Assembly: GCA_050743365.1 (NCBI GenBank)
Contig: JBOGFI010000050.1
Coordinates: 2,917-66,916 of the forward strand
Source of the DNA: Acidimicrobiia bacterium
GTDB lineage: Bacteria; Actinomycetota; Acidimicrobiia; IMCC26256; JACDBD01
Direction of reading: 5' to 3'
Length of the DNA: 64,000 nucleotides
In this document: positions 22,153-61,800 of the stretch, in pieces
How the letters are laid out: every line of letters begins with the position of its first letter
Numbering within the stretch: the first letter of the stretch is position 1
Program-made: the position numbers and the translations under genes
The notes under the pieces: model-generated
What the model saw: only the letters and a program-made list of their open reading frames with translations
Told to the model about the DNA's origin: nothing
Databases searched by the model: none

Positions 22153-22153
22153 C

Positions 22154-32164: not shown

Positions 32165-33339
32165 TCTCCCACAAGCCGGTCTGGCCCAGTGCGGCGGCCG
32201 AATCGGGCTACGCGACGACGGGAGGCTTCCCCTTCCAGATGCGGGCGCTGGCGGAGCTCTTCGACGCCACAACGCTTTGCCTGCCGGTCGAGGACGTCCC
32301 GAGCAGCACGTGCGGGGTCGCTATCGACGGCGCGCGGCTGCGGGTCGTGCCTTTGGGTCCACTCAAGGGTGCGGGGATCGCTCGCAGAGCCAGGTTGCCG
32401 CTGTGGGTCGCCGCGAATCTGCCTCGGCTCGTGCGGGCCGTTCGGCGTGCTGACGCCGTGCACGTGCCAATCCCCGGAGACGTCGGGACGATCGGCATCC
32501 TGGTCGCAGAGGCGTTGCGACGGCCGCTGTTCGTACGCCATTGTGGCAACTGGGCGGTTCCCCGTACTCCAGCCGAGCGGCTATGGCGCTGGTACATGGA
32601 GCGTGCCATCGGCGGACGACGGGTGATGGTCGCAACCGGAGAAGGCGACCGGCCGCCGTCAACCACCAACGATGCGATGACATGGATCTTCTCGACCACG
32701 CTTACCGAGCGGGAGCTAGCAGAGCGCAGGCGCGTCAGGGTGCGCCCGGCCATGCCGGCCGCACTCGTGACCGTGGGCCGGCAGGTGCACCTCAAGGGGA
32801 CAGCGACTGCGATCGAAGCGGTGCGCATTCTCGGCGATCGGGGCGTGGACGCAACACTCGACGTGGTCGGCGACGGGCCGGACCTCTATAGCTTCCGCGA
32901 GCTCGCGTCGCGCCTTGGTGTCGCCGAACAGGTCCGCTTCCACGGCCAGGTTGGTCACGACGACGTCATGGCCATCCTCGACGCCGCCGACGTCTTCGTG
33001 TTCCCCACTGCCGCTTCGGAGGGCTTCCCGAAAGCCGTCCTGGAGGCGCTGGCTTCCGGCCTGCCGGTCGTCACCTCGTCGGTCTCGTCGCTTCCCAACC
33101 TCGTGGGGCGTGCCGGGGTGGTGCTCGAGGACCCGTCCGCGGACGCGGTCGCCGCGTCAATCGAGCGCGTAGTGAGCGATACCGAGGTCTACCAGCGGTT
33201 GTCGGAGGACGCGGTCGCCGCTGCCGCCGACCGGAGCCTGGAACGCTGGCGCGACACTCTCGGAGGTCTTCTCACTGAGCGTTGGGGACAGCTCAGGGAC
33301 GGTCGCCACATTCCCGAGGACCGCCGATGGTCGGCCTGA
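32149..33339 (+). CDS. GT4 family glycosyltransferase
   Basis: GTG 32149 inside ORF 31570..33339 gives the N-terminus VRLVVVSHKP. The C-terminal motif is FPTAASEGFPKAVLEALASGLPVV. The upstream part of the track ORF is antisense to the ABC gene. Confidence 0.8.
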   Translation: MRLVVVSHKPVWPSAAAESGYATTGGFPFQMRALAELFDATTLCLPVEDVPSSTCGVAIDGARLRVVPLGPLKGAGIARRARLPLWVAANLPRLVRAVRRADAVHVPIPGDVGTIGILVAEALRRPLFVRHCGNWAVPRTPAERLWRWYMERAIGGRRVMVATGEGDRPPSTTNDAMTWIFSTTLTERELAERRRVRVRPAMPAALVTVGRQVHLKGTATAIEAVRILGDRGVDATLDVVGDGPDLYSFRELASRLGVAEQVRFHGQVGHDDVMAILDAADVFVFPTAASEGFPKAVLEALASGLPVVTSSVSSLPNLVGRAGVVLEDPSADAVAASIERVVSDTEVYQRLSEDAVAAAADRSLERWRDTLGGLLTERWGQLRDGRHIPEDRRWSA

Positions 33340-42597: not shown

Positions 42598-45519
42598 ATG
42601 GCCGGCCGGTGGGCGCTCGGCTTCGCGGTCGCGGCGGGGCTGGTGCTCGCGGGCTCGGCACTGCTGGAACGGTCGGCGCGCTCAGCCCGTGGGCGCCGCG
42701 GGGAGCCACCGTCGTCATCGGGCAACGAACGGCTCCGAAGCCTCGGCGGGGTCGCGGTAGTCGTCGCCGCGCTCGCCGGGTGGCTCACCGGCCCGGCCTT
42801 CCCGGGATGGGAGGGGACGACGGCGCTGGGCGCCGGCGCCCTTCTGGGCGCCGGCATAATCGTCGGGCAGCACGCACTCCCGGCGTGGACGCGCACCGCC
42901 ACCCTGCTCGCAGCGGCGGCCGCCGTCGCGGCTGCGGGCGTGCGGGCCGAGCCGACGGGCATCGACGCGCTCGATCTCGGCATCACCCTGGCCTGGATCG
43001 TCGTGGTCACCAACGGCGTACGTCGGCTCGATCGCATCGAGGGGCTCGCCATCGGCGTCATGGCGGCCGCGACGGGCGGGATCTTCGCGGTGGCGGCCTT
43101 TGGTGATCAGGATGTGGTGGCGGTCATGGCCGTGTCGCTCCTCGGGGCCTGCTTCGGCTTCTCGGCCTACAGCCGCCGGCGCGCATCGCGTTTTCTCGGC
43201 GGAGCCGCGATCCTGCCGCTCGGCTTCGTCGTCGCGGTGCTCACGATCGAGCTGGACCCGGCCATCGAAAAGCCCGGAAGCGTCCTGGTACCGCTGCTCT
43301 TGGCGGCGGTTCCGCTGCTGGACCTCGGTGTCGTCTTGCTCGACCAGCTCCGCCGCGGACGAGAGCTGGGCCGGAGCCGGCGCCACCATCTCAGCCATCG
43401 GCTGCATACGTTGGGGCTGTCGCGTGGCGCGGCAAATGTAGTGCTGGTCGCGGTCCAGCTGGGGATGTCGGCCGTCGCCGTCTTCGCCGGCCGGGGCGTG
43501 TTGCCGATCCCGTGGGCGGCGGCCGCCGTAGGCGGCCTCGCCGTCGTCGTCCTGGCGCTCGCGCTCGCCGCACCGGTCCACCGGACGCCGGCGCGCGGCT
43601 TCTCCGTCGGCCTCAAGTTCGGGATCACGGTCCTGCTGCTGGGAGTGGCGGGCGTGTCGGCGGCCGCCTCATGGACGGCCCTCGACGTCCGCGACACGAT
43701 GAACGAGGCGCGGCGGATCGCCGAGCGGGCGCTCGATTCCGCGCGCGACGGCGACGCCGACGCGGCCCAGGTCGACTTCGGCGAGGCCGCGATCCGGTTC
43801 GAGGATGCCCGCGATCGCCTGGACGTCCTGTGGCTCCGGCCCGCGCTGGCGGTGCCCGTCGTGGCGCCGAACCTTGCCGCGGCTCGAGACGTCGCCCAGG
43901 TGGGCCTCGACCTGAGCCGGGCGGGCCAGCGGCTGACCGGAAAGGTCGACCAGGAGCGGCTGCGGGTGGTGGACGGCACCGTCCCGCTCGACGAGGTCGA
44001 GCGGCTCACCCCCGACCTCGAGGACGCGGCCGCGATTCTCGACGACGCGCTCCAACGCCTCGATGGCGTCGACGAGACCTACCTGCTCGGGCCGGTGCGC
44101 GACGCCCTCGAGCTCCTCGACCGCGAGCTGACCGACGCCGACAGGGAGGCAGACAACTCGGCGGTGGCGGCCCGGCTGGCGCCGGCGATCCTCGGCCGGG
44201 ACGAGCCGCGCCGGTACTTCCTCGCGGTGCAGAACAGCGCCGAGCAGCGGGCTACCGGCGGGCTCATCGGCAACTGGGGAATCCTCGTCGCCGAGAACGG
44301 CGAGGTGCGACTCGAGGAGTTCGAGCGCATCAGCCTCCTCATCCAGGCCTCGCGCGCGAGCGATCCGACGCTGCACGCGCCCGACGACTACGTGGAGCGC
44401 TACGAGCGCTTCTCGCCCGCAGTCCTGTGGCAGAACGTGAACTTCTCGCCCGACTTCCCCACCGTCGGCGGCGTGATCTCCGACCTCTACGCCCAGGTGG
44501 GTGAAGGGGAGATCGACGGCGTCATCGCGGTCGACCCGCAGGGCCTGGCCGCGCTGCTCGAGCTCACCGGGCCCATCCGCGTGGAGGACTGGCCCGATCC
44601 GATCACGAGCGAGAACGTGGTGGACGTCACCCTCCGCGACGCGTACACGGCCTTCGCCAGCCAACCGGAGCGGGTCGACTTCATCGGCGACGTGGCCGAG
44701 GTGGCGATCGACACCGCCACCGAGGGAGAGATCGGCGAGCCAGCCGAGATCGCTCGCGTGCTCGGACGGGCGGCACGGGAGGGGCACCTCCTGCTCTCGT
44801 TCGTGCGTCCCGCGGAGCAGGTCCTGGCCGAGCAGCTGCAGGCCGGCGGCAGCGTCTCCGAGCCGGAGTCGGATTCGGTGCTGGTCACGAGCCAGAACGT
44901 CGGCCGCAACAAGCTCGACTACTACCTGCGGCGGCAGGTCGGCTACACGGTCCTTCTCACACCCGCCGACTCGGGTGACCGCGCGGCGGTCCAAGGGCGT
45001 CTCGAGGTGCGGCTCGAGAACAGCGCGCCGGGGAGCGGTCTACCGCAGTATGTCATCGGCCCCGCGGAGGGCAGCGAGGATCTGGTGGCCGGCGAGAACC
45101 GGATGTTCCTCTCGCTCTACACCCCGTCTCGTGTCAGCGGCGTCACGCTCGACGGCGACGCCATCGGGGTCGAGTCGGGGACGGAGCTGGGTCACCGCGT
45201 GTTCTCCGCCGACGTCAGCGTCCTGCCCCAGAGCTCTCGTGTCCTCTCCGCCGAGGTGACCGGAGAGGTCGCGCTCGAGGACGGTGGCTGGTACGAGGTG
45301 AACCTCCCCCGCCAGCCGCAGCTGACCGCCGACGACGTGAACGTCACAATCGAGGTGCCTCGAGGATGGCGCATCGCCGAGGTCGACGGTCTGCGCCGAA
45401 GGAGCTCGCGGAGCGCGGCCCGCCATCTCGAGCTCACCGCGCCCACGTCACTGCGGGTCCGACTCGTCCCGGACCAGGATGGCAGGAACCTCTGGGAGCG
45501 GCTCAACGCGGGCACCTAA
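42598..45519 (+). CDS. Degenerate WecA/MraY-like (PNPT) membrane domain fused to a DUF4012 domain
   Basis: 973 aa. Residues 1-330 are polytopic with PNPT-like landmarks (RSLGGVAV, TNGVRRLDRIEGLA, RFLGGAAILPLGF, RRHHLSHRLHTLG), but the acidic catalytic positions are substituted. The C-terminal ~600 aa carry the DUF4012-type FLAVQNSAEQRATGGLIGNWG motif. Confidence 0.75.
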   Translation: MAGRWALGFAVAAGLVLAGSALLERSARSARGRRGEPPSSSGNERLRSLGGVAVVVAALAGWLTGPAFPGWEGTTALGAGALLGAGIIVGQHALPAWTRTATLLAAAAAVAAAGVRAEPTGIDALDLGITLAWIVVVTNGVRRLDRIEGLAIGVMAAATGGIFAVAAFGDQDVVAVMAVSLLGACFGFSAYSRRRASRFLGGAAILPLGFVVAVLTIELDPAIEKPGSVLVPLLLAAVPLLDLGVVLLDQLRRGRELGRSRRHHLSHRLHTLGLSRGAANVVLVAVQLGMSAVAVFAGRGVLPIPWAAAAVGGLAVVVLALALAAPVHRTPARGFSVGLKFGITVLLLGVAGVSAAASWTALDVRDTMNEARRIAERALDSARDGDADAAQVDFGEAAIRFEDARDRLDVLWLRPALAVPVVAPNLAAARDVAQVGLDLSRAGQRLTGKVDQERLRVVDGTVPLDEVERLTPDLEDAAAILDDALQRLDGVDETYLLGPVRDALELLDRELTDADREADNSAVAARLAPAILGRDEPRRYFLAVQNSAEQRATGGLIGNWGILVAENGEVRLEEFERISLLIQASRASDPTLHAPDDYVERYERFSPAVLWQNVNFSPDFPTVGGVISDLYAQVGEGEIDGVIAVDPQGLAALLELTGPIRVEDWPDPITSENVVDVTLRDAYTAFASQPERVDFIGDVAEVAIDTATEGEIGEPAEIARVLGRAAREGHLLLSFVRPAEQVLAEQLQAGGSVSEPESDSVLVTSQNVGRNKLDYYLRRQVGYTVLLTPADSGDRAAVQGRLEVRLENSAPGSGLPQYVIGPAEGSEDLVAGENRMFLSLYTPSRVSGVTLDGDAIGVESGTELGHRVFSADVSVLPQSSRVLSAEVTGEVALEDGGWYEVNLPRQPQLTADDVNVTIEVPRGWRIAEVDGLRRRSSRSAARHLELTAPTSLRVRLVPDQDGRNLWERLNAGT

Positions 45520-45562
45520 CGCGGCACCGGCGGGCGCGCGATGCGGGGTCGCCCGATGGGTG

Positions 45563-46224
45563 TCAGACGGTCAGCTCGACCGGCACCACTGTCACCTCGA
45601 GCACCCGATCCCGACGCAGCAGCCGGACGGGGAGCGAACGACCGATCGCGTCGTCGAGCATGAGCCCTTGGAGCGCGCCGACTCCGTCGACGGGCACGCC
45701 GTCGACGTCGAGGACCACGTCCTGCGCACGCAGTCCCGCCCGCGCCGCGGGGCTGCCGTCCACCACCTCGGCGATCGAGACACCGGCGCGCCGCCCCGAT
45801 GATCCGCCGGGTCGTGCGGTCGATCGGCACCGCGAGGCCCACACCGAGCCCGGCGACCGCGGTGTTGACGCCGACGACCTCACCGCTGCTGTCGGCGAGC
45901 GCCCCGCCGGAGTTGCCGGGGTTGAGAGCGGCGTCGGTCTGGATCACGTTTTCGACGATGCGCGTCGCCGACCCGATCCGCGTGGGCAACGAGCGGCCGA
46001 GCGCGCTCACGACGCCGGCCGTGACCGACCCCGAAAGACCCAGCGGGTTGCCGACGGCGACCACGAGCTGCCCCACCTCGAGGCGCTCCGCGTCGCCGAG
46101 GACGGCCGCGGGAAGGCGCCCGCACGCACGCGCACGACGGCGAGGTCGGACAGGGGGTCTCGGCCGAGTAGGCGTCGAGCGCGTCCGCCGACCGCGCGTC
46201 GCCGAGCCGGCTCGTCTCGTCCAT
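45563..46224 (-). pseudogene. HtrA/DegP-like serine protease pseudogene (N-terminally truncated, frameshifted)
   Basis: Three minus-strand frames carry consecutive homologous pieces. The first is ...GGRARRLLGRDPLSDLAVVRVRAGA. The second is LPAAVLGDAERLEVGQLVVAVGNPLG...ALNPGNSGGAL...LAVPIDRTTRRII. The third is GRRAGVSIAEVVDGSPAARAGL...VVPVELTV* (PDZ). The protease-PDZ linker and the catalytic His region are missing. Confidence 0.6.
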
Positions 46225-46397
46225 CGCTCGGCCTAATCGATTACACGATTACAGGTCTCCAACCGACGACGGCAGCGGAACCTTCCCGGGCACGTGTGAA
46301 GCCACCGAAGTGCTTCGGGCGACTCCGTGTCCGGCGGGGATGGGGGTAGGGATCGTAGGGATGGCAGGACTCGGTCGGGCGGCGTCGGCCGCCCGGA

Positions 46398-46520
46398 TCA
46401 GAATGGGCCGGAGATGGCCCGCGACAGCACGAGGAGCTGGACTTCCGAGGGTGCCCTCGAAGAGCGCGTAGGTGCGGACCTGGCGTCTGCGCGGGAGGGC
46501 CGAGTTCGCAAACCGTGCTC
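46398..46520 (-). pseudogene. Acyl-CoA dehydrogenase 3'-terminal remnant
   Basis: The minus strand reads ...ALPRRRQVRTYALFEGT, then one extra nt at 46449, then SEVQLLVLSRAISGPF*. Compare the intact ACAD C-terminus (56179..) DSKIYTLFEGTSEIQRLVVARAISGMHIQ*. A 7-bp GC hairpin (46377-46394) follows the stop. Confidence 0.5.
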
Positions 46521-46807
46521 GCGCCCAGTGAGTCCAGCGAGTCCACTGGGGAGGACGAAGGTAGGGACCTAGGCACGAAGATCCCTTCGACGATCTTCGA
46601 TCCCGACGAAAATTGGCATGTCAAGGCTGACGCACACCGTCCGACTCGCGATCGCGGCGCACGGTCCGGTGGCTCCAACAAGGCGCCCCGTCCCCCTCCC
46701 GTCGGGTTGATCGCCAGCTGGGGTGGCCACGGGGCACCGAGGCGCAACAGTCGGCCCCGGTCTCCCGGACGATGCTCGGGTGGTGAACCTCGACGTAGCC
46801 TCAACGC

Positions 46808-46990
46808 GTGTTGACACGCGAACAGCTGCACGAGTTGACGCGGCTCATCGCTCGCGCGCAAGACGTTGTTACGGAGTTGCGAGAGGGTCCCGGCGAGAGA
46901 CGCTACGACGACCTGATCGACGAGCTGCGATACGTGCAGCAGCGGATCGGCACCCTCCTACCGCCAGCCACGGCCCGCGATGAGGACTGA
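46808..46990 (+). CDS. Small hypothetical helical protein (60 aa)
   Basis: MLTREQLHELTRLIARAQDVVTELREGPGERRYDDLIDELRYVQQRIGTLLPPATARDED has coding-like GC3 and heptad-like charge spacing. There is no SD and the start is GTG/TTG. It sits in the decay zone. Confidence 0.3.
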   Translation: MLTREQLHELTRLIARAQDVVTELREGPGERRYDDLIDELRYVQQRIGTLLPPATARDED

Positions 46991-47492
46991 GCTTGGTCGC
47001 GCTTCCCACACGATGTTCGTGTGGTGAACGGCTCCGGCTCCCGTGGAGGCTCGGTCGGTTGGCTCCTTCTTGATCGGGTGTATGTCACAGAGAAATCCAC
47101 ATCAGGGCGGATAGGCGCCGTGGGTCTATGCACCTCGCCCGACTTAACGCGTTTGTGGTGTAGCGCTACGCGGCACCGAGCGGTGACCCGGCCCTGAACG
47201 CCCAGCTTGCCGCTCGCGACGGTGGCGCGCGACCCGAGCTCCGGATACCACTCCACCACATGGGTCAGCTCGCCGAGACGGAGCCCGGCCTTGAGTCCGC
47301 AGCCTCCCTTCGCCGAGGCCAGCCGGGCGGTGGTTCCGACCGAGCGGGGCAGCGTCACCGCGGGACGCGTACCAGCGGGTTCGGGCGCCGAGATGGATTT
47401 TCGGTGAATTGCCCATACACCGGATTGGCCGCCGCGCCGCGAGGGTACGCCTGAGGTTTTGCGGCCTGTCGCGGCGGCGAGGGGAGCGGAAG

Positions 47493-49373
47493 ATGGAGGC
47501 ACGGATCGGCCGTTACACGGCCGCAAGCGCTCTTGCGCTGAGCGCTTGGGTCGTCGCCGGGCAGCTGCCGGGTGCAGCCTCGCCCATCGATCCGCCCCCG
47601 GCCACGCCCCCGGAGACCATGATCCCGGACGCGGCGGCCCCGCCAGTGCCGCCACCCCGACCTGCAACCATGCCGGTCGATCCACCCGAGGTCACGGTCC
47701 CGCACGCACCCCTGCCGCCACCCCCAACCGTTTCCGCCCCGGTCGACCCGCCCGAGGTCACGGTTCCGCCAGTGCCGCCACCTCCAACCGTTTCCACCCC
47801 GGTCGATGCGCCCGAGGCCGCTACGCCACAGCTCACCGTCTCGCAGCTGTCGTCGCCGCCGCCTGCGGCCGCACCGGTCGATCCGCCCGAGGTCACCATC
47901 CCGCAGGTGCCGTCGCCGCCGGTCCCGGGTGAACCCCCCGTGGCTCCGAGCGGCGGCGTGCCCATTTCCTCCGGTGGTGCGCCCGCGCCGTCCGACGCGG
48001 GTGTGCTCGGCGCGAGCCTGCTCGACAGCGCGCTCGGCGACGTCGCCGCCACGCTGCCCGAACCGTCCAGCGCGCCAGGGCCCGCCGCCGGCACGCCCCA
48101 GGGCACGACGCCGCAACTCACCGTGTCGCCGTCCCTGTCGTCGCCACCGCCGTCCCCGCCTGCAACGATGCCGGTCGACGAGGTCACGGTCTCACCGACA
48201 CCCGTGCCGCCACCTCCAACCGTTTCCACCCCGGTCGATCCGCCCGAGGCCGCTACGCCACAGCTCACCGTCTCGCAGCTGTCGTCGCCGCCGCCTGCGG
48301 CCGCACCGGTCGATCCGCCCGAGGTCACCGTCCCGCAGGTGCCGTCACCGCCGGTCCCCGGTGAACCCCCGGTGGCTCCGAGCGGCGGCGTGCCCATTTC
48401 CTCCGGTGGTGCGCCCGCGCGGTCCGATACGGGTGTGCTCGGCGCGAGCCTGCTCGATGGCGCGTTCACCAATGTCATCGACGCCGTGCCCTCCGGTGAG
48501 CCCGCGCCGTCCGGCGCTGTAGCCGATGCAGGTCTCGCCGCCGCGGGTCCTACCGGCGGCGTGCTCGGCGGTGTCGCCGACGCGCTCACCAACGTCACCA
48601 GCACGGTGTCGGTCCCGTACGTCGGGTGGTCCAGTGGCGGTCTCGCCGCCGCCAGCCCGACCGAAGGCACGCCCACGCAACCCGTCGAGCCGCCCGTCCC
48701 GCCCGATGCGGGTGTGCTCGGCGCGAGCCTGCTCGGCGGCGCGCTCAACGGCGTCGCCGACGCGCTCACGAATGTCATCGACGCCATGCCCTCCGGTGAG
48801 CCCGCGCCGTCCGGCGCGGTAGCCGATGCAGGTCTCGCCGCCGCCAGCCCGACCGCCGGCGCGCTCAGCAGTGTCGCCAAGGCGCTCACCAACGCCACCG
48901 GCACCTCGTCCGGCGGTGGCCGGGCACGGTCTGTCGGCGCCGCTTCCGGAGTGGCCGTGAATGGTGGAGCTACCGCGAGTAGCGAGCCGAACCCCTTCGA
49001 TCCCGGCGACCCGACGAATGTGCTCGCCCTCCTCGGGATGTTGGACGCGGGTGCGGTGGCGGTCGGCTGCGTGGGGGGCCTGGCCGCCGGTCTCCCGGCT
49101 ACGCCGTCGTGCGGTCAGCTCGCCGCGAGCGGTGCCGAGAACCGGACGCTGGCGACGATCGGCGCTGTTCTCGTGGGTATCGGGTCATTCTTGAGGCTGC
49201 TCCGTCGGCGACCTTCCCGAGGCCTGGGCATCGACACGCACCCTAACCTCGGGCCTGTCGGCGGCTGTACGTTCGGTTACCCCAGAACGAGGTACGCCGC
49301 CCGGACTGAGGTGCCGCCGTCGCCGGTCGCCACGACCGTGTGCGTGCCTGGGCCATCCCCGCCGCTGTTGTAG
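47493..49373 (+). CDS. Secreted repetitive Pro/Thr/Ser/Ala-rich surface protein with sorting-signal-like C-terminal region
   Basis: ATG 47493 inside ORF 47409..49373, with GGGGAG 6 nt upstream. The signal peptide is MEARIGRYTAASALALSAWVVAGQLPGAASP. PVDPPEVTVP and PPPPTVSTP modules repeat. The C-terminus has LPATPSCGQLAASGAENRT, the hydrophobic LATIGAVLVGIGSFL and RLLRRR. Confidence 0.7.
   Translation: MEARIGRYTAASALALSAWVVAGQLPGAASPIDPPPATPPETMIPDAAAPPVPPPRPATMPVDPPEVTVPHAPLPPPPTVSAPVDPPEVTVPPVPPPPTVSTPVDAPEAATPQLTVSQLSSPPPAAAPVDPPEVTIPQVPSPPVPGEPPVAPSGGVPISSGGAPAPSDAGVLGASLLDSALGDVAATLPEPSSAPGPAAGTPQGTTPQLTVSPSLSSPPPSPPATMPVDEVTVSPTPVPPPPTVSTPVDPPEAATPQLTVSQLSSPPPAAAPVDPPEVTVPQVPSPPVPGEPPVAPSGGVPISSGGAPARSDTGVLGASLLDGAFTNVIDAVPSGEPAPSGAVADAGLAAAGPTGGVLGGVADALTNVTSTVSVPYVGWSSGGLAAASPTEGTPTQPVEPPVPPDAGVLGASLLGGALNGVADALTNVIDAMPSGEPAPSGAVADAGLAAASPTAGALSSVAKALTNATGTSSGGGRARSVGAASGVAVNGGATASSEPNPFDPGDPTNVLALLGMLDAGAVAVGCVGGLAAGLPATPSCGQLAASGAENRTLATIGAVLVGIGSFLRLLRRRPSRGLGIDTHPNLGPVGGCTFGYPRTRYAARTEVPPSPVATTVCVPGPSPPLL
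47772..48032. repeat. Intragenic direct repeat, copy 1 (261 nt)
   Basis: It aligns without gaps to 48204-48464 (offset 432 nt, in frame). I count 10 mismatches by eye. Confidence 0.85.
48204..48464. repeat. Intragenic direct repeat, copy 2 (261 nt)
   Basis: See copy 1. Weaker homology extends upstream to 48180 (versus 47754) with a short indel. Confidence 0.85.
48471..48543. repeat. Second intragenic direct repeat, copy 1 (73 nt)
   Basis: aatgtcatcgacgcc...gcaggtctcgccgccgc matches 48771-48843 with 2 mismatches (offset 300 nt, in frame). Confidence 0.8.
48771..48843. repeat. Second intragenic direct repeat, copy 2 (73 nt)
   Basis: See 48471-48543. Confidence 0.8.
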
Positions 49374-49831
49374 CTCGCGGTCACGGCGCCGTCCTGCGAC
49401 GCGGTGTGCGGTTGTCCAGTGAACTTGCCGCCGTCGGGAGCATTGATCTCGAAGGTAACCGTCTCGCCCGCCTTCGCCCCGGTCAGAATGAACATGAACG
49501 GCTGCCCCGACTGCGCAACATTCGGCATAACCGTCAGCTGCGCGGGCGGGGTCGGAGGGATCGTAAGGATCTGCCCGGCGGTCAGCTGATCCTGGTTGGC
49601 CAGTTGGTTGGCCATGGCGATCACCGCGGGCGACAGACCGAAGAACTCGGCAATCGACGTCAGAGTGTCCCCGCTTTTGACCTCATAAGTGAGCGGAGGA
49701 GGTGTCGTCGTCGTGGTCGGAGCGACGCTGGTCCGAGATGGGCCGGTCGTGGATCTTCCGACGTGCCGGGAATCGCTGTTACAGGCGGCGAGGACGACGG
49801 CAGCGCCAGCCGCCAGCACGCGCAGCAGCAT
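49277..49831 (-). CDS. LysM-domain lipoprotein
   Basis: ORF 49277..49897 with preferred ATG 49831, giving MLLRVLAAGAAVVLAAC (lipobox LAAC). The LysM domain is YEVKSGDTLTSIAEFFGLSPAVIAMANQL...GQILTIP. Confidence 0.75.
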   Translation of the reverse strand: MLLRVLAAGAAVVLAACNSDSRHVGRSTTGPSRTSVAPTTTTTPPPLTYEVKSGDTLTSIAEFFGLSPAVIAMANQLANQDQLTAGQILTIPPTPPAQLTVMPNVAQSGQPFMFILTGAKAGETVTFEINAPDGGKFTGQPHTASQDGAVTASYNSGGDGPGTHTVVATGDGGTSVRAAYLVLG

Positions 49832-49875
49832 GTGTCGTCGGAGCAAGCGTGTCGGCGCTGCGGCTGGTGTTCCGG

Positions 49876-50082
49876 TCACTTCTGGCCAGAGTCGCACCCA
49901 CCGCCTCGGCGATGAGCGAGTGCGTGGTCCAGTGGGGGCAGCCGGCGCGCGTCGGCGACCGCGACGGTCTGGAGCTGTGGGCGCCGCCGTGCGACCGTGG
50001 CCATCCGGGGCGACCGATCGACGGCGACGACCCGATGCCCGCGATCGGCGAACTCAGCCACTCCTCGTCCTGGCGATCCCAC
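49876..50082 (-). pseudogene. SAM-dependent methyltransferase fragment
   Basis: VGSPGRGVAEFADRGHRVVAVDRSPRMATVARRRPQLQTVAVADARRLPPLD resembles motifs I to post-II of Methyltransf_11/25 enzymes. An in-frame TGA lies immediately upstream, and the ORF ends after ~68 codons with no C-terminal half. Confidence 0.4.
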
Positions 50083-50313: not shown

Positions 50314-50820
50314 GTGGACTCGTATGGCGAGTTGGTCCGCCGTTACCAGCAGGACGCTCGGCGCACGGCCGCCGCGATCGCGGGCGTGAGCGTCGCCGAC
50401 GACGCCGCCCAGGAAGCGTTCGTCCGCGCGTACGGCTCCCTGCATCGCTTTCGGCCGGGCGCGCCGTTCCGGCCCTGGCTCCTCGCGGTCGTCGCCAACG
50501 TCGCCCGCAACCAGCGCCGTTCGAGCAACCGGTGGACGCGTGCATTCCGCGAATCGGGCAGACGCGGCGGACCGGCCGGTGTGGCGCCTTCGGCGGAGGA
50601 CGAGGCGATCACCCGGCACGGCAACCGCGCGGTGCAAGCGGCGCTCGACGCGCTTCCCCACCACTACCGCGACGTCGTGGCGTGTCGGTACCTCCTCGAC
50701 CTCAGCGAGGACGAGACCGCGCGAGTCCTCGGACTCCCCCGCGGCACGGTGAAGTCGCGCCTGTCTCGAGCACTCGACCGGCTCGAGCGCCAGCTACCCC
50801 GCGAGGTGCAGGGTGCCTGA
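50314..50820 (+). CDS. ECF-type RNA polymerase sigma factor
   Basis: 168 aa from GTG 50314. Region 2 reads AQEAFVRAYGSLHRFRPGAPFRPWLLAVVAN and region 4 reads LSEDETARVLGLPRGTVKSRLSRA. The conserved N-terminal DAELIERAKQGD lies in frame upstream of the first canonical start. Confidence 0.8.
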   Translation: MDSYGELVRRYQQDARRTAAAIAGVSVADDAAQEAFVRAYGSLHRFRPGAPFRPWLLAVVANVARNQRRSSNRWTRAFRESGRRGGPAGVAPSAEDEAITRHGNRAVQAALDALPHHYRDVVACRYLLDLSEDETARVLGLPRGTVKSRLSRALDRLERQLPREVQGA

Positions 50821-51592
50821 CGGGACGCGACGCGCGCTCATCGAAGCGGAGCTCCGTGGGTTGGGTCACAACCTCGACGCCCAGCTCGCCGAGCTCGATC
50901 TCTCGGAGGCGGTGACCCGCCGACTGACGGTCCCTCCCTCGCCGACGCGACCTCGCGGACGCCCGCGGCGGCGTCTCGCGGTCGCGTTGGTCGCGGGCAT
51001 CGCCATCACGACGACTGCTGCCATTCCCGGCGCCCGGGCCACCGTCACACGCTTCTTCGACATCGGTGCAGTCCGCGTGCAGGACGAACCGCCGCCGAGT
51101 CCTGTCCCGTCAGCGAGCGCCGCTCTCGTCCTGGGCGATCGGACGACGCTCGACAAGGCACGTGGCCGGGTGCCAGTTGTGGTCCCGACCGTCGACGGCC
51201 TCCAGACGCCGGACGAGGTCTGGTTCGACGACGTCGGCGGCGGCGAGGTCTCACTCGTCTTCCGCGCCCGGCCCGGACTCCCGGCCGCCGCGCACACCGG
51301 CATCGGACTGCTCGTCCAGGAGTTCAAGGGCAACGGGCAGGACATCGTGCGCAAGTACCTCACGAGCGATTCCCGTGCCCGACCGGTCAGGATCGGCTCG
51401 AACGAGGGGGTGTTCCTCTCCGGCGGAGACCACTACCTCTTCTACACGGATCCCACCGGCGCCGAGCGCTACGAGTACGGGCGGCTCGTCGGCAACGCGC
51501 TCATCTTCTCGCGCGGGCCGCTCACCATCCGCCTCGAAGGTGACCTCCCGCTCCGTCGAATGGTGGCGATCGCTACTTCCCTACGAGGGTAG
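50813..51592 (+). CDS. Membrane-anchored putative anti-sigma factor
   Basis: 259 aa. The GTG start overlaps the sigma stop by 8 nt. It has a single TM (LAVALVAGIAITTTAAI), an extracytoplasmic domain of unknown family, and no zinc-binding HxxxCxxC. Confidence 0.55.
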   Translation: MPDGTRRALIEAELRGLGHNLDAQLAELDLSEAVTRRLTVPPSPTRPRGRPRRRLAVALVAGIAITTTAAIPGARATVTRFFDIGAVRVQDEPPPSPVPSASAALVLGDRTTLDKARGRVPVVVPTVDGLQTPDEVWFDDVGGGEVSLVFRARPGLPAAAHTGIGLLVQEFKGNGQDIVRKYLTSDSRARPVRIGSNEGVFLSGGDHYLFYTDPTGAERYEYGRLVGNALIFSRGPLTIRLEGDLPLRRMVAIATSLRG

Positions 51593-52744
51593 GCCGAGCG
51601 CCGACTTGGCCAGCCTGGTGCCCTCGACCATGTTGCGCAGCTTGGCGAAGGCCACTTCCCAGGTCCGCGTGCGCAGGCCGCAGTCGGGGGTCACGTGGAT
51701 TCGCTCGGGATCGGCGAACACCTCGACGGCATAGAGGATGCGGTCTCGCACAAGCTCCGGCGGCTCGATGAAGTCGGTGTGGATGTCCAGTACGCCGACG
51801 CCGAGGGCGGGGCGGTAGGGCAGGTCGCGAAAGCGCTTGATGATCTGGTAGCCGGGACGAGCGCTCTCGCTCACCCCGAGGTCCCGGGTGTCGTCGTTGG
51901 CGAATCCGACGCAGTACTGCTGGCAGCCGCTCATGGCCTCGATGGCGGGGAAGAACAGCTCGTAGTCGGAGAAGCAGAGATGCGTCGAGAACACCGCGTC
52001 GAGCCCATCGACGGAGGCATTGAACGATTCGGCGAACAGCTCGAGCTCGTCGGGTTCGGTGGACGCCCCGGGCTCGTCGACCTGGAGCCATCGGGCGCCC
52101 AGGTTGACCAGCGACTCGAGGTTCGGTCGGATGAGCCTGGTTGCCAGCTCGAGCACCAGGCGGCGACGCCCCTGCTGCCGTCGCTCCCGGCGTGTGGCGG
52201 CCGGCACGCGAAGGTCGTCCTCGCGGTGGTGGTACTCGTCGAAGGACCAGGCGCCGATCGTGTACGGCCCGGTCACCGGCACCTTGAGCTCGGCCCGGGC
52301 CACTTGGCCCACCAGAGAGAACTCCTCGTCGTGGTAGGGCTCGGAAAGGGACACCGGCCCGGTCACCGCCGCCTTCGTGTAGTACTTGTTGTCGAAGCTG
52401 CGCACGCTGCCGCGGGCCTCGAAGCCTTCAGCGTGGGCGACGGCCCAGTTGTACATCTCGCTGCGCTGCTGCTCGCCGTCGTACACGACGTCGAGGCCGG
52501 CGGCCTCGAGGAAGCGCACGCCGTAGACACTCGACCAGCGCGCAACCTCGGCTCGTCGGTCTCGGGGTAGCGGCGCCTCCCGCAAGAGCGACAGCAGGTC
52601 CTCGTGGCCCTCGACGCCCAGCCGCTCGCCCCACCGCCGGGCGTCGTCCACGTCCTCGGGCGGGACCGGTCGGCCGGCGTAGGCCTTCACCCGCCAGCCC
52701 GGTTTGGCCAGCGACCCGATCTCGTGCGTCAACAGCGCGTTCAT
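51581..52744 (-). CDS. Cobalamin-independent methionine synthase catalytic-domain protein (MetE C-terminal-like)
   Basis: ATG 52744 inside ORF 51581..52945, in an ATGA overlap with the upstream gene. MNALLTHEIGSLAKPGW. Zn-ligand motifs are THLCFSDY and VTPDCGLRTR. Confidence 0.75.
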   Translation of the reverse strand: MNALLTHEIGSLAKPGWRVKAYAGRPVPPEDVDDARRWGERLGVEGHEDLLSLLREAPLPRDRRAEVARWSSVYGVRFLEAAGLDVVYDGEQQRSEMYNWAVAHAEGFEARGSVRSFDNKYYTKAAVTGPVSLSEPYHDEEFSLVGQVARAELKVPVTGPYTIGAWSFDEYHHREDDLRVPAATRRERRQQGRRRLVLELATRLIRPNLESLVNLGARWLQVDEPGASTEPDELELFAESFNASVDGLDAVFSTHLCFSDYELFFPAIEAMSGCQQYCVGFANDDTRDLGVSESARPGYQIIKRFRDLPYRPALGVGVLDIHTDFIEPPELVRDRILYAVEVFADPERIHVTPDCGLRTRTWEVAFAKLRNMVEGTRLAKSALGLPS

Positions 52745-53679
52745 CCCGACAGCACGTCCCTTACCCGCTCGGTCAGCGCCCCCAGCAGGCGCACCTTCTC
52801 GGCGGCCACTGGCTGGGGCAGCAACTCGAGCTCGCTCGCGCTGGACAGGAACACCCGGGGCGGCGCGGCCTGGTCGGCGATCCGGGCGACCAACTCGGCG
52901 GTGGCGTCGAGGTCTTCGAGCACCGTGGCCCGCCCGTTGAGGCACCCGGCAAGCAGACCGATCTCCCAGTTCCGCCCGACGGCGTCGGGGTCGGTCTCCA
53001 CGAGGTCGACACCGACCGCCGTCACCGGCAGCCGCCGCAGTCGGTCGACCAGCGGCTCGGCGTCACCGTAGAAGACGTGGAGGACGACCATGGCCGCCAG
53101 GCCCTCGGTGAGCACGCCGAGCGCCTTCTCGAACGACGCCCACTCGGCCTCGTCGATACCGTGGAACCCGAGCCACGGCTCCTCGAGGTGGATCACCGCG
53201 CAACCGCGGGCCACGAGGAACTCGGCCGCCGGCCGCAGCATCGCTTCGGCCGCCTCGCCCATCCCGAGCCCGCGAGCGGCCCGGGAGAAGAGGTACGGGG
53301 AAGGCAGCGTCGCCGCACGCGGCCGGGGAAGGGCATCCAGATCGGCGAACACGTCCGGCTCCACGCTCAACACCGGCGGCGCCGAAACGTCGGGCGTCCG
53401 GTAGAACGCGTTGTTGTCGAACCAGCGCGCGAGGCCGTCGGCTTCTAGTCCCGTCGACGCATCCACCAGCGGCCGGAACAGATCCTGCCAGCGCAGGAGC
53501 CCGTCGGAGAAGAACCCGAGGCCCGCGTCTCTTTGTAAGGTGATGAACGCTTCGCGGTCGGCCCCGAAGATGGCCTCCACCGCCTCCGCGGTGGTACGCC
53601 CCCGTTCCAGGTCGCGGGTGGCGGCGACCACGGACTCCGAGCGGGGGTATATGCCGTGCTGATACGCGGCGATCTCCAC
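52741..53679 (-). CDS. MetE N-terminal-domain-like protein
   Basis: 312 aa with a GTG start. It has a (beta/alpha)8-like pattern (YPRSE, GFFSDGLLRWQD, IHLEEPWL) without Zn ligands. It is coupled to the downstream catalytic-domain gene. Confidence 0.55.
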   Translation of the reverse strand: MEIAAYQHGIYPRSESVVAATRDLERGRTTAEAVEAIFGADREAFITLQRDAGLGFFSDGLLRWQDLFRPLVDASTGLEADGLARWFDNNAFYRTPDVSAPPVLSVEPDVFADLDALPRPRAATLPSPYLFSRAARGLGMGEAAEAMLRPAAEFLVARGCAVIHLEEPWLGFHGIDEAEWASFEKALGVLTEGLAAMVVLHVFYGDAEPLVDRLRRLPVTAVGVDLVETDPDAVGRNWEIGLLAGCLNGRATVLEDLDATAELVARIADQAAPPRVFLSSASELELLPQPVAAEKVRLLGALTERVRDVLSG

Positions 53680-58894: not shown

Positions 58895-61800
58895 GTGCTG
58901 AGGCGACGCAGGCCAGAGCGCGGCGACGGGCAGGGCTCGGCCGACGTCCGTCGCGCGGCACTCGAGCACGGCCTCGAGCTCGCGCTCGAGGCAGGCCAGA
59001 TGGGTGTGTGGTCGTGGGACCCTCGCACCGGCGCCGTGCACTGGTCGGAGTCGATGGAGCGGCTGTTCGGGCTCGCGCCCGGCACGTTCGACGGCACACT
59101 CGAGGCTTCCTTCGACTTCGTGCACCCCGACGACCGGCAGACCGTGAGCGAGCGGATGGCGCGGGCGCTACCGGGCAGCGATCCCGGGGGCCTGGAGTAC
59201 CGGATCCTGAGAGCCGACGGCGCGGTGCGCTGGATCGAGATGCGGAGTCGACACGCCCCCGACGGCTCGGGGGCCTTCGTCGGCGTCGCCGTCGACGTGA
59301 CCCAGCGGCGGGAGGCCGAGGACGAGCTGCGCAACCGCGAGGCCGCGGCCCGCCTGGCGCTGGACGCGGGCCGGATGGGGTCGTGGCGCTGGGACCGTGA
59401 AACGAACGACGTGCTCTGGTCACCCGAGCTCGAGCGGCTCTTCGGGCTCGAGCCGGGCTCGTTCCCGGCGACCTTCGACGCCTTCCTCGAACGCGTCCAC
59501 CCCGACGACCGCGAGCGCGTGCTCGGCGTCATCCGCAGCGCGGTGGAGGAGGGCGGCCACATCGCGACGGAGCACCGCGTCGTCCTCCCCGACGGCTCGG
59601 TGCGCTGGATCGAGGGGCGCGGCTACGCCGTCCCCGGCACCGACGACACGTTGTGGATCGGCGTCGGCATCGACATCACCGAGCGCAAGCAGGCCGAGAC
59701 CGAGCGGGCCCGGCTGCACGCCCTCGAGCGCACCGCGCGCGCCAACGCCGAGCACGCCGGCCAGGAGCTGGAGGGGGCCCTGGCCCGCCTCGACACGCTG
59801 CTCGAGCACGCGCCGGTCGGCTTCGGGTTCTACGACACCGAGCTCCGCTTCGTTCGGCTCAACGAGCCCCTCGCCGAGATCCACGGGCTCCCGGTCGAGG
59901 CGCACATCGGCCGGACCGCGGCGGAGGTGGCACCCCGGCTCTGGGAGCAGGTGCAGCCCGTCTTCTCGCGCGTGCTCGAGACCGGCGAGGCGGTCGTCGA
60001 CCACGACGTGACCGGCCAGACGGCCGCGGCCCCGGGCATCGAGCGGCATTGGCTCGTGAGCGTGTACCCCGTGTCCGGCGCCTCCGGCGAGCGGCTCGGC
60101 CTGGGCACGGTCGTGCTCGACATCACGGGACGCAAGCGGGCGGAGCGGGTCGCGCGCCTGGTCGCCCGGGCCAGCGAGGTGTTCGCGTCGTCGGTCGACC
60201 TCGAGGTCACGCTCGACCAGGCCGTGCGGCTGCCGATCCCCGACTTCGCCGACTCCTGCCACCTCTTCCTCCTCGAGCCCGACGGCAGGGACCGGCGCGT
60301 GGCGCTCGCCGACGTCGACCCCGCGCTGGAGTCGCTCTTGGCGGAGACCGACCGCAGGTTCCCGGTCGACCTCGCGGGCGACCTCCCGATGGCGAAGGCG
60401 CTTCGAGAAGGACGCAGCGAGCACATCGAGCACGTCACCGACGCGATGCTGGAAGCCTTCGCGCGCGATGCCGAGCACCTCGCGCTCCTCCGCCGCCACG
60501 GCGTGTCGTCGTCGATCACGACCCCGCTGATGGCGGGCGACCAGAGGGTGGGCGTCCTCGTCCTCACCTACCGGCAAGCGTCGGGCCGCCGGTACCAGCG
60601 GAGCGAGGTGGCGCTGGCCGAGGAGCTGGCGCGCCGGTTCGCGCAGGTCATCGAGTGGGCGAAGCTCTCCGCCGAGGCGGAACGGGGGCGCGCGCGCCTC
60701 GACCTTCTCGCGCGCGCCGGGGAGCTGCTCACCGTCGAGCTCGACGCGACCGCGCGCCTCGAGCGCATGGCCAACGTGGTGGTACCGAGCTTCGCCGACG
60801 TCGCCATCGTCCATTTGACCCGACTCGACGGCGACCTAGGCCTCGCGCACGTGGCGTTCGCCGACGCCGAGCGACGCGCCCGCTTCCAGTCGGTCGGCGA
60901 ATGGCCGCCGCTCGCGATCGATGGCCCGGCCCCCCAGGCCGAGGCGGTCCGCACGGGGCGTCCCGCGCTCCTCACCGAGGTGCCCGAGGGCCTCGTGGAC
61001 CAGGTGCTCACCGACCCCCAGCGCGAGTTCGCCCTCAGCCTGGGCATCCGGTCGATCGTCGCCTGCCCGCTTCTCGGGGCCGACGGTTCCTTCGGCGCCA
61101 TCAGCTTCGCGCTCACCGGCCCCGGCCGGCGATACGGCCCCGAGGACGTGCCGCTGGCGGAGGAGCTCGCCCGGCGGGCGGCGTCGGGGGTCGGGCACGC
61201 GCTGCGATTCGAGCAGGAGCACGCGACGGCCGAGACCCTGCAGCGCAGCCTGCTCCCGGAGCGCCTGCCCACCCTGCCCGAGGTCGAGCTGGCGGCGCGC
61301 TACGTGCCCGGCAGCGAGGAGCTCAAGGTCGGCGGCGACTGGTACGACGTGGTGCCGCTCCGGAACGGGCTGGTCATGCTCGCGATCGGCGACGTGGTGG
61401 GCCACGGCGTGCGGGCCGCGGTGGCGATGGGCAAGATCCGCAACGCCCTTCAGTTCTGCGCGCTGGACGGGCTCGCGCCCGGCGCGATCCTGAGGCGGCT
61501 CAACCAGTACTTCTGTGGCCTCGAGGACGCCGCCATGGCCACGCTCCTCGTGCTGGTGCACGATCGCGCCGACGCGACGCTGCGGTTCTCGAGCGCCGGG
61601 CACCCGCCGCCGCTCCTGCAACGTCCGGGCGAAGCGCTCGAGTACCTCCCCGGGGGACGGGACGCGCCGCTGTGCGCGTCCGACACGTCCCGCTATCCGG
61701 AGGTCGAGGCCGAGCTCCCGCCGGGCTCGCTGCTGCTCCTGTACACCGACGGGCTCATCGAACGCCGCCAGGAGTCGCTCGACGAGGGCTTCCGGCGCCT

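Follow-up and report, generated by a model that had tools for sequence, protein, structure and literature searches.

A proline-rich repeat protein of Acidimicrobiia with conserved ends, predicted to be exported and anchored in the cell envelope

In a 64,000-nucleotide stretch of DNA from an Acidimicrobiia bacterium, referred to here as the window, a gene exists that encodes an exported, mostly unstructured, proline-rich protein. The explanation preferred here, to which a probability of about 0.6 is assigned as a whole, is that the product would be a Sec-exported, type I membrane-anchored protein of the cell envelope with a structural role and a recombining middle part. The architecture of the gene, the pattern of its conservation and the dynamics of its repeats were established directly. 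The family to which it belongs is undescribed, and its sequence-derived signature combines a predicted signal peptide and LPIDPPP at the N-terminus with PFDPGD-helix-C-x13-C and GA[EQ]-TM-RRR towards the C-terminus.

Architecture of the gene and its product

The open reading frame, extending from an ATG at 47493 to a stop codon at 49371-49373 (Table 1), specifies 626 amino acids, among which proline (19.8%), alanine (15.3%), glycine (11.2%), valine (10.8%), serine (9.3%) and threonine (8.0%) are prominent. A predicted signal peptide is followed by approximately 280 residues of Pro/Thr/Ser modules, approximately 185 residues of Gly/Ala/Leu modules and a C-terminal module of approximately 100 residues. 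According to the motif map, the units of aa 31-309 include VDxPE (seven copies), PPPPTVS (three), TPQLTVS (three) and PGEPPVAPSGGVPISS (two), and those of aa 310-495 are GVLGASLL, ALTNV and PSGEPAPSGAVADAGLAAA. The AF2 models, whose mean pLDDT is low both for the full protein (46.5) and for the C-terminal module (51.6), contain helices only at aa 2-22, 507-531 and 549-571, the remainder being unstructured, with no predicted secondary structure and a pLDDT of 40-70 in aa 31-309 and a pLDDT below 50 in aa 310-495. The predicted ectodomain carries 40 Asp/Glu versus 5 Lys/Arg residues, as well as 92 Ser/Thr residues, 66 of which are located no more than three residues from a proline.

Table 1. Positions of the gene, its parts and overlapping features in the window
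Feature	Position (nt)	Strand	Basis
5' leader within the homology block common to L001	47281..47492	+	alignment with L001
Coding sequence, 626 aa and stop	47493..49373	+	ORF list, translation
Predicted signal peptide, aa 1-30	47493..47582	+	read from sequence, layout kept in relatives
Pro/Thr/Ser-rich modular region, aa 31-309	47583..48419	+	motif map
Tandem array, 60-nt (20-aa) unit, 3.0 copies, 75% matches	47635..47817	+	TRF; repeat family D1/D5
261-nt in-frame direct repeat, copy 1	47772..48032	+	repeat search, recount
261-nt in-frame direct repeat, copy 2	48204..48464	+	repeat search, recount
Gly/Ala/Leu/Val-rich region, aa 310-495	48420..48977	+	repeat search, motif map
Conserved C-terminal module, aa 496-592	48978..49268	+	alignment of six family members, hydropathy, AF2
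34-aa extension and stop, specific to this genome	49269..49373	+	comparison with L001, L005, L006
Antisense shadow ORF, 463 aa, not part of the feature	47513..48904	-	frame arithmetic

The N-terminus, MEARIGRYTAASALALSAWVVAGQLPGAAS followed by PIDPPP, is arranged like a Sec signal peptide, with charged and hydrophobic parts and small residues at -3 and -1; Arg residues are succeeded by ASALALSAWVVAG and then by GAAS and P, with cleavage predicted before PIDPPP. This layout, ending just before [LS]PIDP, is also present in the distant relatives P0007, L002 637-1494 and L003 1952-2824; in the window protein it includes the first of the AF2 helices, and its dN/dS is 0.41. A lipoprotein was considered and rejected, because aa 1-30 contain no Cys and thus no lipobox Cys at +1 of the mature protein. 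Cys residues in the signal peptides of the relatives are not conserved.

Upstream of the start codon, a Shine-Dalgarno-like GAGGGGAG is located at 47479-47486, 6 nt before the ATG. The leader exhibits 89% identity with the orthologous sequence L001 from 47281 onwards, and further upstream the two are unalignable; its divergence is close to the coding dS (0.13), and therefore no extra constraint on the leader is shown. No regulatory RNA is claimed, because Rfam yielded no match at the gathering score across 45-51 kb (sole match, E = 0.95), the folding of the 220-nt leader was not better than that of shuffles (z = -1.2), and a promoter search of the leader revealed no sigma-70-like site, with terminator-like sites at chance level.

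Conserved ends and related proteins

When 1.84 billion representative proteins were searched exhaustively, five relatives emerged, all of which are unannotated metagenome proteins. Ranging from 175 to 626 aa, the relatives have both ends in common, namely the N-terminal signal with LPIDPPP and the C-terminal module, and their middles are unrelated or reshuffled. Both ends are present in the window protein, P0002, P0007, L002 637-1494 and L003 1952-2824. The entries P0003, P0004 and P0006 represent truncated models or fragments of the C-terminus. P0002 is the orthologue of the window gene and has its start at the corresponding position. Protein-pattern scans of genome and metagenome contig collections gave no match, nor did a DNA scan with a conserved 22-mer of the leader, and the distribution of the family is narrow, extending so far to a single genome of Acidimicrobiia and a small number of metagenome contigs. 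Purifying selection on the family is weak, as dN/dS against L001 is 0.68 for the whole gene and ranges from 0.3 to 1.0 by region and gene, with 0.99 in the Gly/Ala/Leu/Val-rich region. One lineage possesses two adjacent paralogues, each with the C-terminal module, as a tandem pair in L002-L004; a fusion of this pair was rejected as the origin of the 626-aa gene, since the window has one C-terminal module.

The original prediction described the product as a secreted protein, which holds with respect to export, as indicated by the signal peptide layout, but probably not with respect to release, since a conserved C-terminal membrane helix and RRR cluster had been overlooked. The C-terminal module opens with PFDPGDPT, a hydrophobic helix (aa 510-531) and an invariant AGLPA[TS]PSC. 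Then comes GA[EQ], immediately ahead of the predicted membrane helix, which spans aa 553-570 (nt 49149-49202), and the module closes with RRR at aa 571-573 and a short tail. Two Cys residues, Cys526 and Cys540, are invariant, and the invariant columns among the six aligned members are A532, G533, L534, P535, A536, P538, S539 and C540 in one part and G547, A548, L553, G557, G562, G564, F566, L570, R572 and R573 in the other. Hydropathy peaks occur in the windows starting at aa 510 and 552. The combination of a C-terminal membrane helix with the RRR cluster suggests that the protein is probably anchored in the membrane by this module and not released. In hydrophobicity, the helix at aa 510-531 equals the predicted membrane helix, and the two may form a membrane hairpin as an alternative topology. 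Comparison of the two closest genes gives a dN/dS of 0.78 for the C-terminal module, which is high for a functional anchor.

In this genome, the module is followed by an extension that is absent from the relatives compared in Table 1. A TAG occurs in L001, L005 and L006 at the position matching approximately 49267 of the window, and the homology with all three stops at 49266, which indicates that the 34-aa extension arose by the loss of an ancestral stop codon. In antisense orientation, the extension overlaps the 3' end of the neighbouring LysM gene (ORF 49277-49897, minus strand).

Scans of the 626-aa protein matched no Pfam family at E<=0.1 and no NCBIfam family at E<=1, and a sequence search of the PDB gave chance-level matches alone (E>0.1). 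Several known systems nevertheless offer comparisons. Gram-positive LPXTG proteins (class E LAXTG in Actinobacteria) resemble the window protein in the signal peptide, in variable numbers of Pro-rich repeats and in a C-terminal stretch where a cluster of basic residues succeeds a hydrophobic segment. The window protein differs from them in the absence of the pentapeptide and of any family-model match, in the position of its Pro-rich part, which is N-terminal and predicted to be membrane-distal, whereas theirs is next to the anchor, and in a two-Cys helical module before the membrane helix as well as the tail of 17-55 aa found in the family. Apa of mycobacteria, an Ala/Pro-rich antigen of 45/47 kDa (FAP family, PF07174), and the Pro/Thr linkers in cellulases of Cellulomonas, O-mannosylation substrates of GT39 PMT, are likewise exported and of Ala/Pro/Thr-rich low complexity. 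Apa is released, whereas the window protein is predicted to be tail-anchored, and the two have no sequence relationship; membership in FAP/Apa was rejected for want of a Pfam match, and a chaplin was rejected as no model matched.

The substrates of the PEP-CTERM/exosortase system, which Haft et al. in 2006 are said to have found often encoded near exopolysaccharide loci, are likewise exported, low in complexity and equipped at the C-terminus with a motif, a membrane helix and an Arg cluster. Their signal tags many unrelated proteins, whereas the module described here is confined to one small family (5-6 relatives), and the association of the window gene with a glycan locus is not conserved; membership was rejected, with no PEP motif, no model match and no exosortase among the window ORFs scanned. 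A functional analogy is offered by the mucins of eukaryotes and the extensins of plants in their extended acidic Pro/Ser/Thr tandem repeats, unequal recombination and role as a surface brush or spacer, but they have no homology to the window protein, for which glycosylation is hypothetical.

Internal repeats and their evolution

The repeats originally counted in the gene, namely the 261-nt pair, a 73-nt pair and a 27-mer, proved exact on recount. The two 261-nt copies, offset by 432 nt (a multiple of 3), have 10 mismatches, of which 5 are synonymous and 5 amino-acid-changing by inspection; 171 nt of unique sequence separate them, and their longest identical run is approximately 90 nt. In the repeat search, this pair widens to 300 nt at 91% (47739-48038 and 48171-48470). 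The 73-nt pair (48471-48543 and 48771-48843; 2 mismatches, offset 300 nt) similarly widens to 151 nt at 87% (48454-48604 and 48754-48904) inside the Gly/Ala/Leu/Val-rich region. The 27-mer occurs at 47998, 48430 and 48709, with 0 matches in 100 dinucleotide-preserving shuffles when 2 mismatches were allowed. GVLGASLL, assigned in the original prediction to the Gly/Ala/Leu half, is indeed a recurring unit, but the 432-nt duplication includes its first occurrence (aa 170), which therefore lies in the Pro-rich half.

Repeat-driven length variation between relatives was shown directly. The L001 orthologue has 585 aa against 626 aa in the window, the difference consisting of whole-module indels that are all in frame, and L001 has a duplication of its own (211 nt, offset 273). 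In a related gene, a 33-nt unit is present in 3 versus 5 copies in two close contigs, L002 and L003. Together with the reshuffled modules, these differences bear out the expectation that the repeats recombine and that the gene varies in length, as seen here between relatives. The 261-nt copies of the window share derived characters against both L001 copies, and such characters, common to the copies within one genome, indicate gene conversion. Two PGEPxVAPSGGVPISS units are present in matching order in both the window and L001, which suggests that the duplication is probably older than the split of the two and was homogenised afterwards. The description of the protein as recently expanded is thus only half right.

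Alternative explanations, proposed role and implications

With respect to surroundings, the neighbours are as originally reported, comprising the LysM protein with a lipobox (LAAC), an ECF sigma gene (50314-50820) whose 8-nt overlapping successor (50813-51592), without a family match, is taken to be an anti-sigma factor, and a glycan locus approximately 2 kb away, the last gene of which ends at 45519, 1974 nt upstream. This locus includes an initiating transferase, an ABC exporter, methyltransferases and a Wzy_C protein (33282-34709) with no NCBIfam assignment, and such a combination of genes is also found in S-layer glycosylation clusters of Firmicutes. A frameshifted HtrA pseudogene and approximately 1 kb without a convincing gene lie between the locus and the gene. 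A functional connection to the glycan locus, the LysM protein or the ECF pair is not supported. The block of homology with L001 begins 212 nt ahead of the start codon and ends precisely at the stop codon, and the relatives adjoin other genes (TetR, GH43, ilvC and a periplasmic binding protein), so that conservation does not extend to the neighbourhood. A mobile element composed of the gene and its leader block was rejected, given no terminal inverted repeats and no composition anomaly beyond the C-richness of Pro codons.

Three other explanations were weighed. That the feature is not real as described, being a high-GC noncoding or antisense ORF or a duplication created by metagenome misassembly, is very improbable. 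The source is a MAG contig, the gene has a low codon-usage score for the genome, the L005 contig breaks exactly at a 27-mer copy, marking the region as hard to assemble, and the HtrA gene nearby is frameshifted. Moreover, the 463-aa antisense ORF coexists with the gene at the same dN/dS as the sense frame (0.69); third-codon positions are common to the two frames, and wobble-sharing frames are inseparable by dN/dS. Such shadow ORFs are common in high-GC DNA. Whole-codon usage does not separate sense from antisense, and synonymous codon usage weakly favours the plus frame (a score of 0.08, the best of six frames, versus 0.015-0.032 for antisense). Against an artefact stand the conservation of the signal peptide and the C-terminal module in the plus frame down to approximately 45% identity, both of which the antisense ORF leaves uncovered, and the fact that every indel is a multiple of 3. 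Independent assemblies from other samples contain the two-copy PGEP...VPISS order with the same intervening spacer, the mismatches and unique spacer of the 261-nt copies argue against a misassembled duplicate, and long genes in the vicinity (973 and 1139 aa) are uninterrupted.

The other two explanations concern the fate of the exported protein. Unlikely, in our assessment, is that the C-terminal module serves as a sorting signal at which a sortase-like or other dedicated transpeptidase would cleave the protein and link it covalently to the wall, as happens to LPXTG/LAXTG proteins. The three-part layout of a conserved motif, a short (15-18 aa) hydrophobic segment (553-567 in the window protein) and an Arg cluster (R568/R571-573) is compatible with it, as are the strict or near-strict conservation of LPA[TS]P and GA[EQ]S in the family and the presence of the module in both adjacent paralogues of one lineage. 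However, LPATP stands in place of LPXTG/LAXTG, together with LAASG in the window protein at a site where relatives have LNGAES or INGAQS; LPA[TS]P precedes the hydrophobic segment by 14-40 residues, the Arg cluster is followed by 17-55 more residues, the NCBIfam and Pfam scans yielded no model at all, no sortase or exosortase is found among approximately 45 window ORFs scanned, and the module occurs on no other kind of protein in the 1.84 billion representatives. O-glycosylation of the ectodomain is plausible from its composition, since the window protein combines predicted export with Ser/Thr in Pro-rich context, the sequence criteria for GT39 PMT substrates. Ser/Thr close to Pro is a known context of actinobacterial O-mannosylation (PMC12757957), which acts on Sec or TAT substrates (PMC12757957; PMC12331936), and the class Acidimicrobiia is not mentioned in the review of the subject (PMC12757957). 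It is quite improbable that the protein is a dedicated mucin-like acceptor of the adjoining glycan locus, its Ser/Thr glycosylated en bloc by the Wzy_C protein as an O-oligosaccharyltransferase or by a GT39 encoded elsewhere. The 66 Pro-proximal Ser/Thr would fit this context (PMC12757957; PMC12331936), and the gene content of the locus 2 kb away would be compatible with such a role, but the neighbourhood is not conserved, the HtrA pseudogene and the stretch without a convincing gene intervene, the Wzy_C protein has no NCBIfam assignment, and no GT39 mannosyltransferase (PMT) was found among the window ORFs scanned.

The reading as an anchored envelope protein is accordingly retained as the preferred one, and its topology, disulfide and role are what we infer. 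After cleavage of the signal peptide, an acidic, largely unstructured ectodomain of approximately 520 aa would project from the membrane in type I topology, with the N-terminus outside and the C-terminus inside. Its outer half would consist of Pro/Thr/Ser modules, probably forming stiff polyproline-type segments, and its inner half of Gly/Ala/Leu modules, possibly with sugar decoration. The membrane-proximal module would hold the protein, its hydrophobic helix probably stapled by a Cys526-Cys540 disulfide and succeeded by a single membrane helix with an Arg cluster on the cytoplasmic side. Judged from composition, the protein most likely acts structurally, as a wall-spanning spacer or surface brush contributing to the hydration, charge or shielding of the envelope. 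In the middle part, unequal recombination and gene conversion among the modules rapidly alter length and module order, whereas both ends are retained.

The kind of protein is ordinary, as reshuffled internal repeats are usual for bacterial surface proteins, and repeat-driven variation in their length is well known, so no concept is changed; the family itself is undescribed. To our knowledge, the cell surface of Acidimicrobiia is essentially unstudied. A combination of a new lineage-specific sorting or anchoring signal, served by an unknown enzyme, with a mucin-like glycoprotein decorated by the adjoining glycan locus is a long shot; if true, it would represent a previously unseen type of envelope glycoprotein in the class. 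The analysis defines a small family of envelope proteins with a conserved anchor module in a poorly studied class, and shows that the gene models available for this family in public databases are unreliable, with truncated starts, antisense ORFs called as genes and contig breaks in repeats. Additionally, it provides a clean, small example of the concerted evolution of intragenic repeats, and, if the ectodomain is glycosylated, the family would offer a first handle on protein glycosylation in Acidimicrobiia.

Coding frame and predicted architecture

The window, with a GC content of 69%, carries a plus-strand frame whose 626-aa product is rich in proline (19.8%), alanine (15.3%), glycine (11.2%), valine (10.8%), serine (9.3%) and threonine (8.0%), and opposite it runs an antisense frame of 463 aa, a shadow ORF of the kind common in high-GC DNA. 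Because the two frames have third-codon positions in common, as frame arithmetic shows, dN/dS is expectedly blind to strand, and its values of 0.68 (plus) and 0.69 (antisense) do not separate them. The plus strand is supported as the coding frame by six points: its synonymous-codon score is the highest among the six frames, at a value (0.08) that is low against the average of 0.23 for confident genes of the genome; GAGGGGAG lies 6 nt upstream of the ATG (positioned by hand); every indel relative to the orthologue is a multiple of three; the ORF covers the whole block homologous to the orthologous locus; the signal peptide and C-terminal module are kept as protein in distant relatives, down to about 45% identity; and three independent gene callers agree on the strand (for this gene, for P0002, the 585-aa orthologue on contig L001, and for the database protein P0003). 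It is highly improbable that the gene is an artefact or non-coding.

Public gene models for the family contain several kinds of error. In the NCBI model (P0001) an internal GTG serves as the start, so that 471 of the 626 residues are covered and the signal peptide is lacking, the ENA model P0006 comprises the final 96 aa of a 285-aa ORF, and on contig L002 a shadow ORF is annotated in place of a family gene.

Coordinates of the features discussed (window positions unless a contig or aa is named)
Feature	Position	Strand	Remarks
Adjacent paralogues	1296-2657; 2630-3967	-	each an alpha/beta-hydrolase domain fused to an adenylate/guanylate cyclase catalytic domain
Polysaccharide locus	11330-45519		about 34 kb
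UDP-GlcNAc 2-epimerase	21818-23311
Cytidylyltransferase	22891-24021
Fused ABC exporter	29973-31820	-
Wzy_C protein	33282-34709
GT4 (WecA-like) + DUF4012 fusion	42598-45519		973 aa, unusual
HtrA/DegP-like serine protease pseudogene	45516-46240	-	broken across several frames
Trypsin core of pseudogene	45516-46076		one frame, with GNSGG
PDZ domain of pseudogene	45563-45883		second frame
SDLAVVRV piece of pseudogene	near 46150-46200		third stretch
No convincing gene	46240-47280		about 1 kb
Homology to L001	47281-49266		includes 212-nt leader
Repeat-protein gene	47493 (ATG) to 49371-49373 (stop)	+	626 aa
Shadow ORF	47513-48904	-	463 aa
60-nt tandem unit	47635-47817	+	3 copies, repeat tools
261-nt direct repeat	47772-48032; 48204-48464	+	10 mismatches, in-frame offset 432
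73-nt repeat	48471-48543; 48771-48843	+	2 mismatches, offset 300
27-mer	47998; 48430; 48709	+	three copies, recounted
34-codon extension	49269-49373	+
LysM lipoprotein gene	49277-49897	-
Convergent overlap	49277-49373		97 nt
Methionine synthase ORFs	51581-52945; 52741-53679	-	overlap about 200 nt
Multi-sensor protein	58895-62314	+	1139 aa; PAS (3), GAF (2), SpoIIE phosphatase, HATPase_c_2
Sec-type signal peptide	aa 1-30		Arg4, Arg7, hydrophobic ASALALSAWVVAG, GAAS|PIDPPP
Pro/Thr/Ser modules	aa 31-309		VDxPE (7), PPPPTVS (3), TPQLTVS (3), PGEPPVAPSGGVPISS (2)
Gly/Ala/Leu/Val modules	aa 310-495		GVLGASLL, ALTNV, PSGEPAPSGAVADAGLAAA
Conserved C-terminal module	aa 496-592		missing from the original prediction
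C-terminal module, first part			PFDPGDPT, hydrophobic helix 510-531, Cys526, AGLPATPSC (Cys540)
C-terminal module, second part			GAE, hydrophobic segment 553-567/570, RRR 571-573, short tail
Accidental extension	aa 593-626
L002 tandem paralogues	3-602; 637-1494
L003 tandem paralogues	1387-1914; 1952-2824
L004 tandem paralogues	896-1579; from ~1620
ORF part modelled as P0006	L002 1204-1494	+
Shadow ORF replacing gene A	L002 3-980	-

The ectodomain is strongly acidic (40 D/E vs 5 K/R) and contains 92 Ser/Thr residues, of which 66 have a proline no more than three residues away. AlphaFold2, run with a seven-sequence alignment, placed helices solely at residues 2-22, 507-531 and 549-571, with a mean pLDDT of 46.5 (51.6 for the C-terminal module alone); this output is unusable as a model and serves as support for a protein predicted to be mostly unstructured.

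A small family with rearranging repeats

No match for the protein was found in Pfam, NCBIfam or PDB. A word-indexed search of 5.8 billion proteins returned two sequences, namely the NCBI model of the gene itself (ACRDZ1_03935, from an Acidimicrobiia MAG) and P0002, while an exhaustive HMMER pass with the C-terminal half against 1.84 billion representative proteins yielded five proteins, one more came from a profile of the C-terminal module, and scans of the genome and metagenome contig collections gave no hit. The close group consists of L001, with a complete gene, and L005 and L006, with C-terminal pieces at contig ends; a distant lineage (L002, L003 and L004) carries two family genes in tandem, gene A of about 227 aa and gene B of 285-290 aa. 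The Pro-rich part has disappeared from gene A of L003 (P0005, 175 aa), leaving remnants in another frame. The architecture is conserved: in all full-length members the signal peptide stops just before [LS]PIDP and the C-terminal module retains invariant AGLPA-PSC, GA, G..G.G.F, L and RR, with middles that are unrelated or reshuffled and total lengths of 175-626 aa. The family is small, undescribed and confined to a narrow lineage.

Recounting confirmed in full the 261-nt pair, the 73-nt pair and the three 27-mers that had been noticed from the sequence, and the 27-mer was absent from 100 dinucleotide-preserving shuffles with 2 mismatches permitted. With repeat tools the first pair grows to 300 nt (91%) and the second to 151 nt (87%). 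The independent metagenome contig L005, 95% identical to the window, begins exactly at the third 27-mer copy (its position 1 being window 48714), which suggests that short-read assemblies break at these repeats.

Compared with L001, the gene shows 90.6% identity over aligned codons plus whole-module indels, and L001 has its own duplication of 211 nt at an offset of 273. Two PGEPxVAPSGGVPISS units occur in both genes, in the same order and with the same spacer, and therefore the duplication is probably older than their split; it would also not be an assembly artefact of one sample, since L001 carries the same two-unit order. In a four-way alignment of the copies, the window copies have common characters absent from both L001 copies, and vice versa (a GGT indel, a T/C site and a T/A site), a sharing within genomes of the kind left either by gene conversion among the copies or by duplications that arose repeatedly and independently. 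In gene B, the 33-nt unit encoding ALPSAPLPPPP is present in 3 copies in L002 vs 5 in L003, alongside a 7-aa indel and an identical final ~110 aa, which demonstrates, beyond inference, that close relatives vary in length. The module indels and this unit difference document the recombination and length variation that the original prediction had proposed. Judged by dN/dS against L001 (signal peptide 0.41, Pro-rich part about 0.5, Gly/Ala part 0.99, C-terminal module 0.78) and in gene B (0.32), selection on the family is weak.

Gene borders and genomic setting

Homology to L001 stops exactly at the L001 stop codon, where L001, L005 and L006 all have TAG; the window gene has lost this ancestral TAG, and its frame continues for another 34 codons, running antisense across the 3' end of the LysM lipoprotein gene; this convergent overlap was created by a rearrangement junction. 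The flanking gene differs among loci: LysM in the window, TetR in L001, and GH43 in both L005 and L006, two contigs with flanks that are 96% alike. Upstream lie the interval without a convincing gene and the HtrA pseudogene, in which neither an N-terminal His-box nor a membrane segment was found. Neither terminal inverted repeats nor any other mobile-element sign turned up at the gene, and the most economical explanation is that deletion and rearrangement acted locally around a gene itself kept intact.

The polysaccharide locus encodes an initiating sugar transferase, a DegT aminotransferase, several GT2, GT1 and GT4 enzymes, two AMP-binding enzymes, AsnB, three methyltransferases and a Wzz/GNVR/kinase protein, besides the genes listed in the table, among which the 2-epimerase and cytidylyltransferase resemble those for nonulosonic-acid sugars. 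Elsewhere in the window, cobalamin-independent methionine synthase is divided between two ORFs, the upstream one with Meth_synt_1 and the downstream one with Meth_synt_2, which reflects either two separate genes or a frameshift, and the 1139-aa multi-sensor protein looks like a partner-switching regulator.

Proposed anchoring and display at the cell surface

The best-supported reading, to which we assign a probability of about 0.6, is Sec export combined with a C-terminal anchor and a wall-spanning unstructured chain. The protein would be exported via Sec and its signal peptide cleaved, after which the C-terminal helix would tether it, placing the Arg cluster and the tail on the cytoplasmic side, and the long acidic, Pro-rich and Gly/Ala-rich chain would be displayed through and beyond the wall. 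In this inferred topology the two invariant cysteines would be extracellular and could pair as a disulfide in the membrane-proximal module, with the chain acting as a spacer or brush. Of the earlier description of the protein as secreted, export stands on the signal peptide, whereas release gives way to "exported and anchored" in view of the C-terminal module.

A sortase-like step that links the protein covalently to the wall is unlikely: the C-terminus does have a three-part tail, but the pentapeptide is missing, the tail is long, no model matches the protein and, among the 1.84 billion representatives, the tag was found on no other kind of protein. Sortase, exosortase and GT39 mannosyltransferase were not found among the about 45 window ORFs scanned. 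Exported proteins of Mycobacterium, Streptomyces, Corynebacterium and Cellulomonas, all actinobacteria, are established to carry O-mannose on Ser/Thr within their Pro-rich segments (PMC12757957; PMC12331936). The amino acid composition and closeness to the polysaccharide locus would suit a dedicated glycoprotein acceptor of that locus, but synteny is not conserved, and such a role is rather improbable. The LysM lipoprotein gene is present as originally noted, and so are the ECF sigma gene and the presumed anti-sigma gene paired with it; none of the polysaccharide, LysM or ECF genes is retained beside any relative, and the proposed link to the glycan locus is unsupported because this synteny is not conserved.

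As a candidate sortase substrate, PEP-CTERM protein, FAP/Apa or lipoprotein, the protein fails the defining tests. It would function in the manner of those Gram-positive surface proteins that are Pro-rich and vary in their repeats, and is similar in composition to Ala/Pro-rich actinobacterial antigens; it represents a new, tiny family of an already known kind.
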